Shown piece after piece: positions 35,748-42,436 of a stretch of DNA of 64,000 nucleotides; the stretch's first letter is position 1, and every line of letters begins with the position of its first letter. A model generated the notes under the pieces. The model was given only the letters and a program-made list of their open reading frames with translations, did no database searches and was not told where the DNA came from. The translations under genes and the position numbers were made by a program. Source of the DNA: Cyanobacteriota bacterium (GTDB lineage Bacteria > Cyanobacteriota > Cyanobacteriia > PCC-6307 > Cyanobiaceae); assembly GCA_046052125.1 (NCBI GenBank), contig JBJOMY010000004.1, forward strand, positions 128,001 to 192,000, in the 5' to 3' direction.

Positions 35748-38243
35748 TCAGCTCCGCTCCGCACCAGGAATGTGCTGCCAGTTGGTGTGGGTGGCCCACA
35801 CCCCCCAGATGGCCATGGCCCGCAGGTAGTGGCAGGCGCGGAAGGTGTTCACGGCGGTGATCGCTTCGGGGGTACGGAACTGCAGGCCACCGCGATACAC
35901 CTGCTCCACCACGGCTGAGGTGATCGCCAGGGCGGTTTCGGTGTCGCCCATCAGCCGGTAGTAGCTGGCGATGCCGAAGTTGATGCCGGTCCACACCTCC
36001 AGGGGGTGGGTGCCGTTGGGGTCGAGGGGGGTGCCATCGCGGCGCAGGCCATTGGCCACACCGAGGCGGCCGCCTTCAAAGCGCTCGAAGCAGGCTTCCT
36101 TCACGGCCTTGAGGGTGCTGCGGCTGTTGGCTTCGCTCACCACCGGCGGCAGCCCGAGCAGCCGGGCGTAGAAATCGCCGCAGAGTTGGTCGGCCATCAC
36201 CACCGGCGTGCCGCTCTCGGCGTCGATGTCGTAGTACTCGCCGTTCCAGAGCAGCGTGTCGAAGTTGGCCCGCGATTGCTCCAGCCAGCCGCTGAAGGTG
36301 CGTTGTTCGCCAGAGGTGTCGAGCCCCGTCTGCAACTGCAGCTGTTGGGCGATGGCCAGGGCGGCCTCCAGGGCTGCGATCCACAGGGCTCCGCAGTAGG
36401 CGCTCACGCCCTTGAGGGGCCAGTCATCGAAGGTTTGATCCGGTGCGCCGCCGTTGTCGGGTAGGCCGTCGTTGTTGGCGTCAAAGGTTTTCAAGTAGTG
36501 CAGCGCTTCCACCGCAGCGGGCCAGCACTCCGCCAGGAAGTTGATGTCTTCGCCGTTGGGCGCCAACTTGAAGGTGCGCCACACCTGGAGCACGTAGTCG
36601 CTGGCCAGGTCCTTCCAGAGGTTGCAGTCCTGGTAGGCGGTGTAGTTCGTGGCATCCCAGGGCCGCTCATTCGGTGCGCCCAGGTCGTGGGGGGTGGCTC
36701 CTTTCACCTTGCGGGCCGCTTCCACGCGCCCTTTGCCCTGGGTGAAATACCAACCGATCGGCCGCGGCGAGGCATCGGCAGCGGGGATCGCCCGCGCGAA
36801 GCTGCGCAGCACTGCCTTGTCGAGCTCCGGCCAGAGCTGCAGCAGCGCCAGTGAGCCGTAGAGCCGCACATCGAGGCTTTCGTACCAGGCGTAGTCGAGG
36901 CACTCGAGCACGCCGAAACGGCCGTAGGGATCTTCCCGTGATGCGGCGCTCCAGAGGCTGCCGCCACTGCAGAGGTCGTAGAGCTCGTTGAACAGAGCCA
37001 TCCGCAGTGGCTCGGGCAGATCGCTGCGCTCAAGCACCGGCTGCTGCCAGGCCTCGATCTGTGCACGCCAGCTGCGCCAGTCGCGCAGGCCCTCGGCGGC
37101 GATGGCGGCGGCATTGATGCCACTCGTGCCGAAGAAATCGGTGTAGCGGCGCAGGGCGCTGGTGCCGGTGGCAAAGGCCGTCACCGGCAGATCCCAGCTG
37201 ATCACCAGCGGAATCTCGATGCTCTGGCCGGGCTCCAGGCGGCACTGAACCGCCAGGGCGGCACTGGCGGGATCGTTGACTCCGCTGCGCCGATCGTTGT
37301 TGCTTTCAGGAATGGAGCCATTGGCGCTGAAATCGCTCCAGATTTCGCTGCCATCGCCGTGGGGATTCCAGCGGCTGCAGCGCTGGATTCGCACCCATGG
37401 TTGCTCGCTGGTGGCAATGCACCACTGACCCTGACCTTCGGCAACCGGAGAGGAGACATCGCCCTCCAGCAGCACGCCTTTCAGCGAGCCATCGTCTACC
37501 CAGCGGTTGCGATGGCCCTCGCTGTTGCCGATGGCCGGTGCGTAGTTGTGCTCGGGGCTGCCGTCGTCACGGAAGTGCACCTCAGCTGAGGCGTCGGTGT
37601 TGGTGAACCAGCCGGTGGTGTTGCGCCAGCTCAGCAGCAGCGACAGATCAAGCGGCTTGCGGGTGGGGTTGCGCAGGGTCCACACAAACACCGCCACCGG
37701 GTAGCTGGTCTGCCTGTAGTTGCCCGGCAGGATCGGGCTGAAGGCCTCGCAGCTCACCTCAGCATCGAAGACGCCCTGGTAGTGGCTCCAGCTCAGTGGG
37801 TAGCGGGCCGCGTAGGTGCCGGTGGATCGATCGGCGCTGCTGGCGGGGTACCAGTTCCAGGCCGGTAGAGGTTGGCCAGCCTCGGGCCGTGAGGCATCCA
37901 CCTCGGGTGCAACGGCCAGGGCGTGGGCGCGCGGGGTTTTGCCGTTGTCTTCAAACAGGGCGAACTGACAGTCGGGCAGCACACCAAACCAGTGCTCGCC
38001 TCCATCGAGGTGCCAGAGGTTGAAATTCCCGTCGGGCGCGCGGCCGATGCAGCCCGCACCGAAGCCCCCCAGGGGCATGCCGTGATTGGGGCCGTCGTCG
38101 AGGTTGCTGGCGTAGCGAACGGTGTAGGGCTTGCTCCAGCCCTGGCCCAGGGCCCGCGACCAACTGGCACTGGGGGCTTGCCAGGTGCTGCGGGATTTGC
38201 GGCGCAGCAGGGATCGGAGGGCGGTGAGGCCGAGGCGCGCCAT
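35748..38243 (-). CDS. GH116 family glycoside hydrolase
   Basis: HGMPLGGFGAG, LFNELY, FGVLECLDY, PHDLG, WKDL, DQTFDDW, FRTPEA, YLRAMAIW. Confidence 0.88.
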   Translation of the reverse strand: MARLGLTALRSLLRRKSRSTWQAPSASWSRALGQGWSKPYTVRYASNLDDGPNHGMPLGGFGAGCIGRAPDGNFNLWHLDGGEHWFGVLPDCQFALFEDNGKTPRAHALAVAPEVDASRPEAGQPLPAWNWYPASSADRSTGTYAARYPLSWSHYQGVFDAEVSCEAFSPILPGNYRQTSYPVAVFVWTLRNPTRKPLDLSLLLSWRNTTGWFTNTDASAEVHFRDDGSPEHNYAPAIGNSEGHRNRWVDDGSLKGVLLEGDVSSPVAEGQGQWCIATSEQPWVRIQRCSRWNPHGDGSEIWSDFSANGSIPESNNDRRSGVNDPASAALAVQCRLEPGQSIEIPLVISWDLPVTAFATGTSALRRYTDFFGTSGINAAAIAAEGLRDWRSWRAQIEAWQQPVLERSDLPEPLRMALFNELYDLCSGGSLWSAASREDPYGRFGVLECLDYAWYESLDVRLYGSLALLQLWPELDKAVLRSFARAIPAADASPRPIGWYFTQGKGRVEAARKVKGATPHDLGAPNERPWDATNYTAYQDCNLWKDLASDYVLQVWRTFKLAPNGEDINFLAECWPAAVEALHYLKTFDANNDGLPDNGGAPDQTFDDWPLKGVSAYCGALWIAALEAALAIAQQLQLQTGLDTSGEQRTFSGWLEQSRANFDTLLWNGEYYDIDAESGTPVVMADQLCGDFYARLLGLPPVVSEANSRSTLKAVKEACFERFEGGRLGVANGLRRDGTPLDPNGTHPLEVWTGINFGIASYYRLMGDTETALAITSAVVEQVYRGGLQFRTPEAITAVNTFRACHYLRAMAIWGVWATHTNWQHIPGAERS

Positions 38244-38270
38244 GGGGCAGCTGAGGGTGGGGCCAGCTTG

Positions 38271-38522
38271 TCAGAGCTTGCTGTTCGGTGCCTCAGCGCC
38301 CACTTCCTGTTCCACCAGGGCATCGAGGGTCACAGCGGAGCGCACCAGGGCCTGGTAGTGCTGCACCACCCGCCGGTTGCGCTCCAGCCAGCCCGCCGGA
38401 TTGCCCTGGGCGGCGGCGAGGCTGCCGGTGTGATCGCCATCGAGCAGATCGAGATCGTTTTGCTGGTTGATCAGTGCAAGCACCAGCTCATGAATGCGCT
38501 GGCGGCGATCGGCGTCGGGCAT
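38271..38522 (-). CDS. Small hypothetical protein
   Basis: 83-aa helical ORF filling the gap between grrM and GH116 on the same strand. Confidence 0.65.
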   Translation of the reverse strand: MPDADRRQRIHELVLALINQQNDLDLLDGDHTGSLAAAQGNPAGWLERNRRVVQHYQALVRSAVTLDALVEQEVGAEAPNSKL

Positions 38523-38570
38523 GGAACGGAAAAACCGCTCAACACGTGATAGCCCAGCCAGAGCTGTGGC

Positions 38571-39764
38571 TCAGTGGCCGGGAGGCGGCCCAGCTTCGAA
38601 GCGATCGAGCAGCACCTGCACCGGGATTTGCGTACGGAAGCGGCAGGCGCTGGTTTCACTGCAATCCAGCGTGCCGTGCTCCCAGAACTTGTTGCTGCCC
38701 ATGCCGCCGCCGCAGAGGCCGTAGTAGTCGCAGCTGCTCTGGCAGCGCTGCATCCCCGCCACCACATCAGCCCAGAGTTGCTGGAAGCGGGGGCTGTGGG
38801 CGGCATCCACCAGCGTGGTGTCGCGGATGTTGCCGAGGTTGAACGTGCCGTAGCGCTCGCTGCTCACCGAGAGCAGCTCCGGATCAAAGGTGGAGAAGTT
38901 GCCCTGCCAGTCCACGCTGAGGATCGAATAGGGCCGGTTGAGTTCGTTCTGATTGAGGCGCCGGTTGCGCTGGATCAGATCGATCACCTGCTGAAACTCC
39001 CGCAGCATCACCGGATGGCCATCGGCTTCGCTGAGCTGCCAGAAGCGCGTGAGGAACTCCCGGTAGCGCTCCTCCTGCTCACGGCCCTGCATCGAGGAGC
39101 TGGTGTGCACGCCCTCTTGCTCCTCCACGTTGAAGCCCACGGAGCTGATGCCGTTGTCGCGGAAGAAGCGATACATCGCTTCGGGCTGCTCCATCGCCGC
39201 GGCGGTCACCACCGCGATCACGTGGCAGGGGATGTTGTGGCGCCGCAGGGTGTCGATACCGCGCAGGCAGAGATGGTGCGAGGGGTTGCCATTGCGGAAA
39301 CGGCGATGGGCGTCGTGGATGGCCTCCGGCCCGTCGATGCTCACGCCCACCACGATGCGGTTGCGACGGAAGCAGTCGCACCATTCGTCGTTGATCAGCG
39401 TGCCGTTGGTCTGCACGTGCTGCTCGATCACCACGTTGCCGTCGCTGAACTCGTGCAGACAGCGCTCGATGATCGCGGTGGCTTCGTCGTAGTAGCTGCA
39501 GGGCAGGGTGAGCGGTTCGCCGGCGTGCCACACCAACGACAGATGCGGCCCGCAGAAGGGGCTCTCCATCACCCGCTGCAGCAGCAGGGGCAGGAGCTCC
39601 AGGTTGAACACCCGCCGCTTCTGCCGATCGGGCAGATAGCAGTAGTCGCAGTCGAGGTTGCAAAGGGAGGTGGATTGCACCACTACCAGGCCGATTGGGC
39701 CGAAACGGCTCAGATCGAGAGCTGCATCGGCCGAGGGGGCCGTTGCGACTGTGCTGCTGCTCAC
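38571..39764 (-). CDS. grrM: Radical SAM/SPASM peptide maturase, GrrM/OscB type
   Basis: CNLDCDYC, WHAGEP, QTNGT, GVSIDGP, STFDPEL, Cys-rich C-terminus; adjacent to a Gly-rich precursor. Confidence 0.9.
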   Translation of the reverse strand: MSSSTVATAPSADAALDLSRFGPIGLVVVQSTSLCNLDCDYCYLPDRQKRRVFNLELLPLLLQRVMESPFCGPHLSLVWHAGEPLTLPCSYYDEATAIIERCLHEFSDGNVVIEQHVQTNGTLINDEWCDCFRRNRIVVGVSIDGPEAIHDAHRRFRNGNPSHHLCLRGIDTLRRHNIPCHVIAVVTAAAMEQPEAMYRFFRDNGISSVGFNVEEQEGVHTSSSMQGREQEERYREFLTRFWQLSEADGHPVMLREFQQVIDLIQRNRRLNQNELNRPYSILSVDWQGNFSTFDPELLSVSSERYGTFNLGNIRDTTLVDAAHSPRFQQLWADVVAGMQRCQSSCDYYGLCGGGMGSNKFWEHGTLDCSETSACRFRTQIPVQVLLDRFEAGPPPGH

Positions 39765-40147
39765 CAGTTCACGAAGCTGCCGGGCAGCACGTTGGCCCAG
39801 CCGCCATTGCCCCAGCCGCCATTGGGCCAGCCGAGATTCACATTCAGGCCGCCGCCGTAGTAGCGGCCGCCATTGCCCCAGCCACCACCATTACCCCAGC
39901 CGCCTCCGCGCCAACCGCCGCCATTACCCCAGGCGCGACCGCCACCGTTGCCCCAGTAGCGCGCCACCAATTCGCCGTTGCCGGAGCTGAGTTGTGGCTG
40001 CCAGGCGCCGTCGCGTAGAGCCTGGATGCGGCTCTCAAGCGGATTCCTAAGATCCGGGGCTTGAAACACAGCGGCCTGAGCCGTCTCGGTGAAGACGGCG
40101 GCTGCGGCGGTGAGGGTGAGCAGCTGCAGCAGAGAACGGGGTGCCAT
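39761..40147 (-). CDS. grrA: Gly-rich repeat RiPP precursor (GrrA/OscA type)
   Basis: Hydrophobic leader, then W-x-N-G-G repeats ending in FVNW; GTGA overlap with grrM. Confidence 0.88.
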   Translation of the reverse strand: MAPRSLLQLLTLTAAAAVFTETAQAAVFQAPDLRNPLESRIQALRDGAWQPQLSSGNGELVARYWGNGGGRAWGNGGGWRGGGWGNGGGWGNGGRYYGGGLNVNLGWPNGGWGNGGWANVLPGSFVNW

Positions 40148-40184
40148 GGCAGTGACGGTTGCGGTGATCAGGAGGGCTGGGGCG

Positions 40185-41069
40185 TTATTGCAGGGAGAGC
40201 ACGGCGGCGGTGAGCAGCACGTTGGTGAAGTAGGTCTTGATCGCGTCTTGGCTCAGGTTCACAGCGCTGCCCGGTCCCACCCATTGATTGATGCGGCTCT
40301 GGGCGTTGGGATCGTCGTTGATGTAGGCCTGCATCAGCCGGGCGATGGCCAGGTTGCTCAGGTTGAGCAGGCCTGAGTTGTTCTCCGGAACGATGCACGA
40401 CACCGCTGCCCGGCTGTAGGGCACGAGTGGATTGATGCTGCCGGCCGGGTCCGCAGCAGCGCGGTTAGCCAGCAGCCAAAGGCTGTCGCCCGCCAGGAAC
40501 TGGATCTGGCCGCCCTTGAGCGCCGCCAGGGCGGCTGCAGTGTTGTCGATTGTTTGGAGCTTGGCTCCTGGAACGCTCTTCTGGATGGTTTGAGCGGCGA
40601 GGGTGTTGTTCACCACCCCCACGGTTTGGCCCGTGAGTGCACCGGGGGTGCCGTCGTTGCCAGCCGGGGTGATCAGGCGGGTGCCAGAGAGGGCAAAGGG
40701 CAGGGAGTAGTCAACGAACATCGAGCGCCCCCAGCTGAAGCCCACGCCACAGGCCAGGTCGACGTTGCCGCTGGCGATGGCGGCGAGGCCCTGCTCCACC
40801 GACTCAACTGGTTGGGGAACCAGCTGCACAGGCTTACCGGTGTACTCGCTCAGCTCCTTCTGGATTTCCTTGGCAAATTCCATGCCGAGGCCCACGTAGC
40901 CGTTGCCCTGTTGGGTGGTGTAGGGCAGGTCGCCATCCATCACCAGGGTGTTGAGCCGGCCGCTGCGGCTCACGCGATCGAGCACCGAGCTGTCAGCCAG
41001 GGCGGGTTGAAGCGCACCCAGGGTGATGCCGACCAGTGCACCGGCCAGAGCGGTTAAACGAAGAGCCAT
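40185..41069 (-). CDS. grrP: Orphan extracellular substrate-binding protein (GrrP type)
   Basis: Signal peptide (ALA), amino-acid-binding-protein-like sequence, FSWGRSMFVDYSLPF; no permease or ATPase nearby. Confidence 0.8.
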   Translation of the reverse strand: MALRLTALAGALVGITLGALQPALADSSVLDRVSRSGRLNTLVMDGDLPYTTQQGNGYVGLGMEFAKEIQKELSEYTGKPVQLVPQPVESVEQGLAAIASGNVDLACGVGFSWGRSMFVDYSLPFALSGTRLITPAGNDGTPGALTGQTVGVVNNTLAAQTIQKSVPGAKLQTIDNTAAALAALKGGQIQFLAGDSLWLLANRAAADPAGSINPLVPYSRAAVSCIVPENNSGLLNLSNLAIARLMQAYINDDPNAQSRINQWVGPGSAVNLSQDAIKTYFTNVLLTAAVLSLQ

Positions 41070-41182
41070 AGGGCGTTGCAGCGACCCAAGCAAGCTCGCC
41101 AAAGTTAGGCGGCCTGAGCCGGTTTGGCTGCAACGGGCGGCAGCCGGGTTGGCCCTGCAGGCTGCCCATCCAGAATGACTGG

Positions 41183-42436
41183 ATGATCGAGGTGATCGGC
41201 ACCGATGCCGGTGCGCCGGCCACCTTGCCGGTTCAGCACCAGCAACGCCTGCGGCAGGCCCAGCTGATTGCGGCGCCGAAGCGCCTCCATCCGGCCCTGC
41301 GCGCCTGGGCTGGCGATTCCCTGCCCGAGCTGCTCGCTAGTGATCAGCCGCAAGTGCTGCTGGAGCGGCTTGGCTCGCTGGCGCCGGATGCGGCGGCGGT
41401 GGTGCTGGCCAGCGGCGACCCGCTCTGGTTCGGCATCGGTCGCTTGTTGTTGGAGGGCCTACCCCCGCAGCGCCTGCGTTTCCACCCGGCTCCCAGTTCT
41501 CTGCAGCTGGCGTTCGCACGGATTGGTCGCCCCTGGCAGGACGCCGGCTGGCTGAGCCTGCACGGCCGCGATCCCGATCCCTTAACCGCTCGGTTGCAGC
41601 AGCGCCCCGCCGCCCTGGCCGTGCTCACCGATCCAGGCCAGGGCGGTGCGGACGACGTGCGCCGCTGCCTCAGAGCCGCGGGCCTGGAGCAGGCCTACCG
41701 CTTCTGGTTGTGCGAGCGCCTGGGGCATGCGGAGGAGCGGGTGCAGTGTCTGGCTCCTCATGAGCCATTACCCGCGGATCTCGATCCGCTGCACCTGGTG
41801 CTGCTTGTGGCGCAAGATCCACCGTTGCCCCAGCAGCTGCCGCTGTTCGGCTTGCCGGATGGGGTGTTTCTGCAGCATCCCGATCGCCCTGGGCTGATGA
41901 CCAAGCGTGAGGTGCGTATTCAGCTGCTAGCGGAGCTGGATCTACCGGCCCGCGGTGTGCTCTGGGATATCGGTGCTGGGGTGGGTTCGGTTGGGCTGGA
42001 AGCGCTGCGCCTGCGCCCGGCGCTGCAGCTTTGGGCCCTGGAGCAGCGCGGCGGTTCGGCGTCGTTGATCCAAGCCAACGGCGAGCGGCTTGGCGTGGTG
42101 CCGGCCGGCGTGGTGGAGGGGCGCGCCCCTGAGGCTCTGCTGCAGCTGCCGGATCCCGATCGCGTGTTGCTCGGTGGGGGTGGCCGCGACCGGCGGGCTC
42201 TGTTGCAGGCCGTGCTGGATCGCCTGCGCCCGGGTGGTGTGGTGGTGATTCCCTTGGCCACCCTGGAGGCCCTGGCCGAGCTGCGGCCTGTGCTGGAAGC
42301 CGCTGGCCTTCAGGTGAGCCTCAGTCAGCATCAGGCCTGGAGAGGTGCTCCGCTGGCTGATGGCACCCGGCTGGCGCCGCTCAATCCCGTGCTGGTGTTG
42401 CGGGGCGAGCGCCGGGCTGAGGGATCAGCGGCCTGA
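41183..42436 (+). CDS. cbiET: Bifunctional precorrin-6Y methyltransferase/decarboxylase CbiE-CbiT
   Basis: VLASGDPLWFGIG, SSLQLAFAR, MTKREVR, WDIGAGVGSV. Confidence 0.92.
   Translation: MIEVIGTDAGAPATLPVQHQQRLRQAQLIAAPKRLHPALRAWAGDSLPELLASDQPQVLLERLGSLAPDAAAVVLASGDPLWFGIGRLLLEGLPPQRLRFHPAPSSLQLAFARIGRPWQDAGWLSLHGRDPDPLTARLQQRPAALAVLTDPGQGGADDVRRCLRAAGLEQAYRFWLCERLGHAEERVQCLAPHEPLPADLDPLHLVLLVAQDPPLPQQLPLFGLPDGVFLQHPDRPGLMTKREVRIQLLAELDLPARGVLWDIGAGVGSVGLEALRLRPALQLWALEQRGGSASLIQANGERLGVVPAGVVEGRAPEALLQLPDPDRVLLGGGGRDRRALLQAVLDRLRPGGVVVIPLATLEALAELRPVLEAAGLQVSLSQHQAWRGAPLADGTRLAPLNPVLVLRGERRAEGSAA

Follow-up and report, generated by a model that had tools for sequence, protein, structure and literature searches.

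The closest described system is the OscA/OscB pair (GrrA/GrrM, the 'GRRM system') of filamentous cyanobacteria, which belongs to the triceptides (Nguyen et al., Nat Chem 2020, through the reviews PMC11002830 and PMC10304443). According to these review accounts, OscB forms three-residue cyclophanes from residue i to i+2, joining Trp-C7 to the Cbeta of Asn or Asp and Phe-C4 to the Cbeta of Asn, and the chemistry that the initial annotation of the present DNA had assigned to GrrM/OscB-type enzymes agrees with this description. A Lyngbya 'lsc' cyclophane cluster is given as 2.6 kb in the PCC review, a size similar to the 2.66-kb interval described below. Among enzymes with solved structures, the two nearest to GrrM are anSME (PDB 4k36-4k39) and the triceptide (multiple cyclophane) synthase ChlB (PDB 9gm3/9gmc), which was crystallised with a leader peptide. 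As far as the published accounts of ChlB describe it, the enzyme is part of a fused rSAM/HExxH protein and its substrate motifs contain Tyr (YDR), unlike the Trp/Phe-x-Asn motifs of GrrA.

What this enzyme class does chemically is known; a full-text literature search found no report on the picocyanobacterial product, its function or destination, or the reason for the constant orphan binding protein, nor any mass or structure data for a picocyanobacterial GrrA (Nguyen 2020 and Sugiyama 2022, outside the reach of the search, may cover product and function). The present analysis adds the export features of GrrA and GrrP, the counts of overlapping starts, the linkage of GrrP, the presence and absence of the cassette and its traces in environmental RNA.

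In the window, by which we mean the whole stretch of 64,000 nucleotides analysed, three co-oriented genes in the order grrP-grrA-grrM occupy positions 38571-41069 (window coordinates) on the minus strand, as follows:

40185..41069, minus strand: grrP (ATG at 41069; stop codon included), exported-looking orphan protein of 294 aa, similar to amino-acid substrate-binding proteins (SBP); TIGR04262 and Pfam SBP_bac_3
40148..40184, minus strand: spacer of 37 nt between grrP and grrA, read from the sequence and spanned by RNA-library contigs (X1 record 4, X7 record 29)
39761..40147, minus strand: grrA (stop codon included), precursor of 128 aa; TIGR04260
39761..39764, minus strand: GTGA, overlap of grrM start and grrA stop, read from the sequence
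38571..39764, minus strand: grrM (stop codon included), radical SAM, putatively SPASM-type, enzyme and predicted cyclophane maturase of 397 aa; TIGR04261 and Pfam Radical_SAM

Judged by its sequence, this is an intact and complete GrrP-GrrA-GrrM (GRRM; OscA/OscB-type) triceptide locus, and it is an unremarkable example of a cyanobacterial three-gene system that has been catalogued before; the family and the chemistry of the enzyme class have already been described. The SBP-like gene, the 128-aa Gly-rich peptide and the radical SAM enzyme listed in the initial annotation were all present in the same orientation, and the NCBIfam search that it had proposed returned scores far above the curated cut-offs for GrrM (TIGR04261, 600.2 bits, cut-off 310, profile positions 1-362 of 363 covered), GrrA (TIGR04260, 72.8 bits, cut-off 31) and GrrP (TIGR04262, 319.2 bits, cut-off 190). 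All three genes thereby match the same families as the OscA/OscB system. The three open reading frames (40185..41102 for the SBP-like protein, 39761..40147 and 38571..39764) are intact and full length with respect to their HMMs, and the start of GrrP at the ATG at 41069 (MALRL...) is backed by alignment to its two closest relatives (L004 and L005).

The gene order grrP-grrA-grrM was found in 30 of 30 picocyanobacterial loci. The GTGA overlap, also noticed earlier, lies in the junction AAC TGG TGA, where the GTG at 39764-39762 overlaps the TGA at 39763-39761; an overlapping in-frame grrM start occurs in 27 of the 30 loci (GTG at -4 in 19, TTG at -7 in 8), and grrA and grrM would be translationally coupled through it. 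The distance of only 37 nt between grrP and grrA was absent from the initial annotation. Taken as a whole, the sequence evidence is probably best explained by a GRRM triceptide locus in which GrrM forms cyclophanes on GrrA, the product is exported by the Sec route and GrrP is a likely partner.

The enzyme carries two conserved Cys regions:

39639..39662, minus strand: radical SAM [4Fe-4S] motif of GrrM, C35-x3-C39-x2-C42 (CNLDCDYC), invariant in 23 GrrM
38643..38744, minus strand: C-terminal Cys cluster of GrrM, residues 341-374, C341-x3-C345-x5-C351 … C374, invariant in 23 GrrM

By homology to the characterised enzyme, GrrM would be a cytoplasmic radical SAM enzyme of the class that forms three-residue cyclophanes. 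The motif CNLDCDYC, already recognised in the initial annotation, was located at residues 35-42 and aligned with the CxxxCxxC of anSME and ChlB. The C-terminal cysteines aligned with the CxxCx5C of anSME; the fourth anSME Cys is replaced by Met355 in GrrM and by Ser in ChlB, and neither protein has a Cys at the upstream positions of the other (first) auxiliary cluster, a reduced Cys set that the two have in common. The Pfam SPASM profile scored 17.6 on GrrM, under its gathering score of 21.5. An AF2 model of GrrM (pLDDT 85.5) gave anSME 4k36 and ChlB 9gm3 as its best folds, with TMq values of 0.70-0.72. ChlB is distant from GrrM in sequence (E 1.5e-18) and has the same fold (TMq 0.72); neither enzyme has an N-terminal RRE domain, for which GrrM would leave no room.

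Among solved structures, anSME is the best match to GrrM in both sequence and fold, with the same rSAM core and a C-terminal region that may be of the SPASM type. We considered that GrrM might act on another substrate, for instance as a sulfatase-type maturase, and that GrrA might be an unmodified secreted Gly/Trp-rich envelope protein. The closest solved structure by sequence is indeed the anaerobic sulfatase maturase 4k37 (E 4e-23), in a comparison that contains no OscB-type structure. However, GrrM scored 158.8 bits with the sulfatase-maturase HMM TIGR03942, under its cut-off of 349.45 and far from its score with the GrrM/OscB HMM, so that the grouping with anaerobic sulfatase maturases named in the initial annotation as adverse to its reading was not seen. 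No sulfatase gene adjoins the locus, and in each of the 30 picocyanobacterial loci grrA immediately precedes grrM, mostly with the overlapping codons described above. As the Asn residues of the GrrA motifs are also conserved whereas the spacers vary, we consider this explanation highly improbable.

The substrate of GrrM, in the preferred reading, is GrrA, the sole copy above the TIGR04260 cut-off in the 2.64-Mb genome. Three segments can be distinguished in it:

40073..40147, minus strand: GrrA residues 1-25, Sec-type signal-peptide-like segment (MAPRSLLQLLTLTAAAAVFTETAQA/AV cut point), by a crude signal-peptide rule
39998..40042, minus strand: GrrA residues 36-50, helix-like motif conserved in the leader (PLESRIQALRDGAW; pattern in the family E-x-R-[LI]-x-x-[IL]), from the alignment of 28 GrrA
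39764..39958, minus strand: GrrA residues 64-128, Gly-spaced core that holds eight [W/F]-x-N motifs and has Trp as its last residue, by motif count

The core string with its eight aromatic-x-Asn motifs had been given exactly in the initial annotation and corresponds to residues 64-128, with WGN at 65, 73, 84, 90 and 112, WPN at 107, WAN at 117 and FVN at 125. When the 65-residue core was shuffled 100000 times with its composition preserved, an average of 1.5 motifs resulted and no shuffle reached eight. Across the 28 aligned GrrA sequences, the motif Asn positions are conserved and the spacers variable, N67, N75, N114, N127 and W128 being invariant or nearly so. The motif types, Trp-x-Asn and Phe-x-Asn, are those described for OscA/OscB in the review accounts; since every one of the eight falls under the two kinds on which OscB is reported to act, GrrA could by fair inference carry as many as eight rings, seven of them on W-x-N and one on F-V-N. 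Use of the full set is a prediction, in particular for W-P-N with Pro at X2, which could also be a site of ring formation. Picocyanobacterial cores are Gly-spaced (W/F-x-N-G-G), whereas several other cyanobacterial GrrM loci have contiguous runs such as WENWENWEN.

At each motif, GrrM would take the Cbeta hydrogen from the Asn at position 3, and this carbon would then be bonded to the aromatic ring of the first residue, at C7 of Trp or C4 of Phe, each ring formed lowering the mass by 2 Da. GrrM may recognise GrrA through the conserved helix E-x-R-[LI]-x-x-[IL], which lies between signal peptide and core; R40 is among only five invariant columns of the alignment, and in other cyanobacterial GrrM loci comparable R-L-x-x-[VI]-R motifs stand ahead of Trp-rich cores of quite another kind. 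Within the region coding for the core, positions 39792-39833 hold 2.8 copies of a 15-nt tandem repeat. W79 (in WRG) and the terminal Trp fall outside the motifs, and neither had been mentioned in the initial annotation.

The signal-peptide-like start of GrrA had been left out of that annotation. Twenty-eight of 28 aligned GrrA sequences passed the rule, a home-made one (hydrophobic window, basic n-region and small-x-small site) that is also passed by 6 of 23 cytoplasmic GrrM controls. Modified GrrA would be exported by its Sec-type signal peptide, which would be cut off after AQA25, so that a poly-cyclophane chain of about 103 residues would come to lie outside the cytoplasm. If this is true, the system would represent radical-SAM stapling of a secreted protein and not of a small antibiotic-like peptide.

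A different fate of the core would follow from the leader/core logic of most characterised triceptide work, as the accounts available describe it: an unlinked protease might cut out the core or single W-x-N units as diffusible cyclophane peptides of a classical small RiPP, with GrrP as a sensor or re-uptake receptor. The GrrP features given below, namely its amino-acid-binding-protein fold with the conserved Arg and Asp and its sequence match to sensor domains, would fit such a role. Yet the cassette contains no protease or transporter gene, its neighbours being a GH116 gene, an unrelated 83-aa core gene and cbiE/T; the core is poor in protease-type sites; and the GrrA N terminus is Sec-like and not of the double-Gly or another RiPP leader type. 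The C-terminal residue, moreover, is Trp in 30 of 30 picocyanobacterial GrrA (outside the picocyanobacteria, Trp in 9, Arg in 9 and Tyr in 1 of 19). On balance, we judge a small RiPP unlikely.

In the preferred reading of an exported GrrA, the co-encoded, exported and transporter-less GrrP would be its likely extracytoplasmic partner. Its N terminus was assigned as follows:

40995..41069, minus strand: GrrP residues 1-25, signal-peptide-like N terminus (…ALA/DS cut point), by the crude signal-peptide rule

The same rule was passed by 21 of 27 GrrP sequences, against the 6 of 23 GrrM controls, and in four GrrP relatives a lipobox (VAC/Q cut point) takes the place of the signal-peptide site. The AF2 model of GrrP had a pLDDT of 88.5, with residues 1-25 below 50, and its best folds were those of the Glu/Asp-binding protein DEBP (2vha/2ia4, TMq 0.73); the best sequence match among solved structures was to the sensor VFT domains of BvgS (E 7e-22). 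The model places GrrP in the type II periplasmic binding fold, like GltI/DEBP-type proteins and BvgS VFT domains. It differs from these in an extra conserved C-terminal helix and a W263-x-G-P motif, in the lack of an ABC permease or ATPase gene beside it (the neighbours are grrA/grrM, cbiE/T, the 83-aa ORF and GH116) and in its constant linkage to grrA-grrM, which it adjoins in 30 of 30 picocyanobacterial loci.

C107, C225, F111, W113 and R115 are invariant in 27 GrrP sequences. By sequence alignment the Cys pair sits where DEBP also has Cys, which fits export. GrrP also has, at the aligned positions, the Arg and Asp that are conserved in amino-acid-binding proteins such as DEBP, the Asp in 24 of the 27 sequences. 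In such proteins these two residues bind the carboxylate and the ammonium of a free amino acid, and since GrrP retains them, its ligand could be a small molecule instead of GrrA. That GrrP may bind GrrA is suggested only by gene linkage and shared export signals.

Every one of the 30 picocyanobacterial loci has Gly at residue 108 of GrrP together with a GrrA that ends in N-W or N-x-W, whereas the 11 other loci all have Asp or Asn there and a GrrA whose end is mostly N-R, N-R-R or N-R-W. We regard this apparent covariation with the GrrA C-terminus as a lead only, because the split matches one phylogenetic divide and one locus (L063, with Asn108 and a GrrA ending in R-N-W) breaks the pattern. 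A more specific picture, which we put forward tentatively and hold to be rather doubtful, is that GrrA is no small natural product freed from a leader but a protein of about 100 residues, exported by the Sec route, which its Trp/Phe-Asn staples, spaced by Gly, turn into a rigid aromatic ladder that resists proteases in the periplasm or envelope, and that the carboxylate of its invariant C-terminal Trp docks in the amino-acid pocket of the co-exported GrrP, in which Arg115 is invariant. The two proteins would then form an extracytoplasmic module for signalling or structure in roughly half of the Synechococcus/Cyanobium genomes.

Picocyanobacteria are among the most abundant phototrophs of lakes and oceans. 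Among 201 genomes from the host's family, 82 carry GrrM, and the cassette is present in about half (69 of 131) of the well-assembled Synechococcus/Cyanobium-type genomes sampled. Within the genus, the 2.66-kb cassette is present or absent between two core genes; it is missing from four of the eight sampled genomes (own genome counted), two of which have, at that same site, a clean junction of 22 nt. This patchy presence would be compatible with a decaying or silent remnant in the host strain, an explanation to which we give very little likelihood. Against it, the three reading frames are intact and full length, the catalytic Cys residues are invariant, and the GC content of the cassette (65%) is akin to that of the window (66%), so that composition gives no signal of horizontal acquisition. 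Near-identical sequence also occurs in environmental RNA: contigs of four freshwater metatranscriptomes from four studies cover all three genes with at least 93% likeness and span both gene junctions, although such contigs are blind to strand, level and single transcripts and derive from close relatives, not necessarily from the host strain.

Upstream of grrP, one further feature was delimited:

41070..41182, no strand assigned: divergent region of 113 nt between grrP and cbiE/T, presumed to be a promoter region

No sigma-70-like consensus was found in 41070..41182, and the only terminator-like site in a terminator scan lay inside grrP on the wrong strand; both scans are uninformative for a high-GC cyanobacterium. 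The depth of the RNA-library contigs was zero at 41159-41275 in all four metatranscriptomes. At the other end of the locus, the 83-aa ORF at 38271..38522, downstream of grrM, was considered as a fourth cassette gene and rejected, because 152 of the 201 family genomes have it, GrrM-less ones among them, and it lies away from grrM in other genomes that carry GrrM.

The interpretation of the three-gene cassette as a GrrM-type radical SAM locus, which the initial annotation had proposed for 38571..41069, proved right on the basis of profile searches against NCBIfam. The radical SAM enzyme GrrM scored 600.2 bits against TIGR04261 (cyclophane-forming rSAM/SPASM maturase GrrM/OscB, cut-off 310), the Gly-rich precursor peptide GrrA 72.8 bits against TIGR04260 (cut-off 31) and the substrate-binding-like protein GrrP 319.2 bits against TIGR04262 (cut-off 190). 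Grouping of GrrM with the anaerobic sulfatase maturases, an outcome that would have overturned this assignment, was rejected, as TIGR03942 returned 158.8 bits, below its cut-off of 349.45. Pfam searches returned Radical_SAM in GrrM and SBP_bac_3 in GrrP, no match for GrrA, and a SPASM score in GrrM of 17.6, under the gathering threshold of 21.5. The cassette is intact and unexceptional, belonging to a family that already has a name and a characterised chemistry and that is common within this clade.

Features of the cassette and its neighbours
35748-38243, minus strand: GH116 protein (beta-glucosidase 2 / glucosylceramidase-type), 831 aa, both Pfam domains
38271-38522, minus strand: 83-aa ORF, no Pfam or NCBIfam match
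38571..39764, minus strand: grrM ORF, 397-aa radical SAM protein, CNLDCDYC at residues 35-42
38643-38744, minus strand: part of GrrM (with residues ~260-340) where Cys present in anSME are missing, as they are in ChlB
39761..40147, minus strand: grrA ORF, 128-aa peptide
39792-39833: 15-nt tandem repeat, 2.8 copies, inside the grrA core
40185..41102, minus strand: grrP ORF, substrate-binding-like protein, ATG at 41069
41183-42436, plus strand: fused CbiE-CbiT precorrin-6Y methyltransferase, divergent from grrP

The three co-oriented genes of the initial annotation were recovered as minus-strand ORFs filling 38571-41102, its core string was exact with eight motifs counted, and the GTGA in which the stop codon of grrA overlaps the start codon of grrM (…AAC TGG TGA) was seen in the sequence. 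From the ATG at 41069 GrrP begins MALRLTALAG…, in agreement with the aligned N termini of its two closest relatives, and 37 nt separate grrP from grrA. A TIGR04260 search of the whole genome (2.64 Mb, 10 contigs) returned this single grrA above the cut-off. Gene order was then compared in the best 30 picocyanobacterial loci (L004-L033, including the window's own, L015), where grrM was directly preceded by a GrrA ORF and GrrP lay upstream of GrrA in all 30. An in-frame grrM start overlapping the grrA stop was kept in 27 of them (GTG at -4 in 19, TTG at -7 in 8), suggesting that the translational coupling first proposed from the overlap would be a conserved trait.

GrrM above the cut-off occurred in 82 of the 201 genomes of the GTDB family of the window, in 69 of its 131 high-quality genomes, in 22 of its 64 genera, and in none of the ~1.3-1.9-Mb genomes among the family genomes listed. 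Sampling across the phylum returned 41 of 401 genomes, with the matches concentrated in a few families. The cassette is flanked by the GH116, 83-aa ORF and fused cbiE/cbiT genes, a DUF192 gene, an NblR-like regulator and a NAD kinase. The 83-aa ORF, found in 152/201 family genomes including small ones devoid of GrrM, is a separate, unnamed picocyanobacterial core gene; GH116 lies beside it in relatives too. Here 2660 nt (38523-41182) separate the 83-aa ORF from cbiE/T and contain the whole cassette, whereas two genomes of the same genus without GrrM have only 22 nt between the same genes (L061:1744-1765, L062:1744-1765), and one more GrrM-bearing genome of the genus carries the two genes on separate contigs. 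The cassette is therefore acquired, lost or relocated whole, with no GC signature.

A passage of the review PMC11002830 describes co-expression of XncB, OscB (IPR026357) and MscB, each with its own precursor, NMR on the products revealing C-C cross-links from i to i+2. For OscB the bonded pairs are Trp-C7 with Asn/Asp-Cbeta, and Phe-C4 with Asn-Cbeta; such products go by the name of triceptides, and enzymes of this kind by that of 3-CyFEs. Paracyclophanes at Phe motifs are attributed to OscB in a passage of PMC11499958, and a list in a Pasteur-collection review includes a 2.6-kb cyclophane cluster in Lyngbya. Full-text literature searches found nothing on a picocyanobacterial GRRM product or function. 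The 65-residue GrrA core of the window holds eight motifs (five WGN, WPN, WAN and FVN), a number reached by none of 100000 shuffles of the same core (mean 1.5). Counts of [WFYH]-x-[ND] vary among close relatives (9 in L004, 7 in L005, 8 in the window), differences consistent with repeat expansion and contraction in the grrA core.

Alignment of 28 GrrA sequences, obtained from the best 30 loci after dropping two near-duplicates, showed invariant M1, R40, G98, N114 and W128. The picocyanobacterial precursors open with a hydrophobic N-terminal segment that has a small-x-small site, followed by the helix-like motif E-x-R-[LI]-x-x-[IL] and then by [W/F]-x-N motifs, five to eleven in number and spaced by Gly; a Trp closes the chain in all of the best 30 loci, and GrrA-like ORFs of other cyanobacteria (n=19) end in Trp (9), Arg (9) or Tyr (1). 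Some GrrM loci of other cyanobacteria have very different cores (WENWENWEN…) after a similar R-L-x-x-V-R leader motif, which points to the helix as the putative element recognised by GrrM. A search HMM trained on picocyanobacteria found no GrrA within 5 kb in 17 of 31 non-picocyanobacterial loci. Contiguous Trp-x-Asn/Asp runs lacking Gly spacers occur in the GrrM-adjacent precursors of L084, L087 (the WENWENWEN… core), L089, L092 and L093, which have an R-L-x-x-V-R-like leader motif in common with the picocyanobacterial type.

The AF2 model of GrrM (pLDDT 85.5) had as structural matches anSME and ChlB (TMq 0.70-0.72), the latter a triceptide synthase whose crystal structure includes its leader. 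Invariant Cys residues were C35, C39, C42, C131, C341, C345, C351 and C374; C129 is nearly invariant. In the alignment, three upstream Cys of anSME have no Cys counterpart in GrrM, and the fourth Cys of the anSME CxxCx5CxxxC is replaced by Met355; ChlB likewise lacks Cys at the same four positions. In anSME these Cys presumably ligate the first auxiliary cluster; if so, the sequences hint that GrrM, like ChlB, may have fewer or differently wired auxiliary Fe-S clusters.

GrrP was modelled (pLDDT 88.5) as a type II binding protein, closest in fold to the Glu/Asp-binding DEBP and other amino-acid binders, its best solved sequence match being the BvgS VFT sensor domains. C107, C225, F111, W113 and R115 are invariant. 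In profile alignments R115 and D196 fell on an Arg and an Asp conserved among amino-acid binders, two residues that presumably bind carboxylate and ammonium, and both C107 and C225 matched Cys in DEBP. No transporter genes adjoin grrP in the locus neighbourhood. A crude signal-peptide rule selected 28/28 GrrA and 21/27 GrrP versus 6/23 GrrM controls; the six remaining GrrP have no basic residue, possibly owing to the chosen start codon, and four GrrP carry a lipobox. Residue 108 (window ~40746-40748), within the motif C-G-x-x-F-x-W-x-R, is Gly in 30/30 picocyanobacterial loci (L004-L033), where GrrA ends N-W or N-x-W; 11/11 other cyanobacterial loci (L063-L086) have C-[D/N]-x-x-F and GrrA mostly ending N-R, N-R-R or N-R-W, a pattern confounded by phylogeny and with L063 as an exception.

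Finally, near-identical sequence was present in RNA libraries: contigs of four freshwater metatranscriptomes, each run belonging to a different study, covered 29, 22, 25 and 25 of the 30 bins into which 38000-41500 was divided, with a likeness of at least 93%; such contigs carry no strand, level or single-transcript information. The grrA-grrM junction was spanned by assembled contigs X6 record 23 and X7 record 28, and the grrP-grrA junction by X1 record 4 and X7 record 29. Depth was zero at 41159-41275 in all four runs, and the coverage pattern argues against blanket DNA carry-over. Contig X1 record 1 covers the 83-aa ORF.
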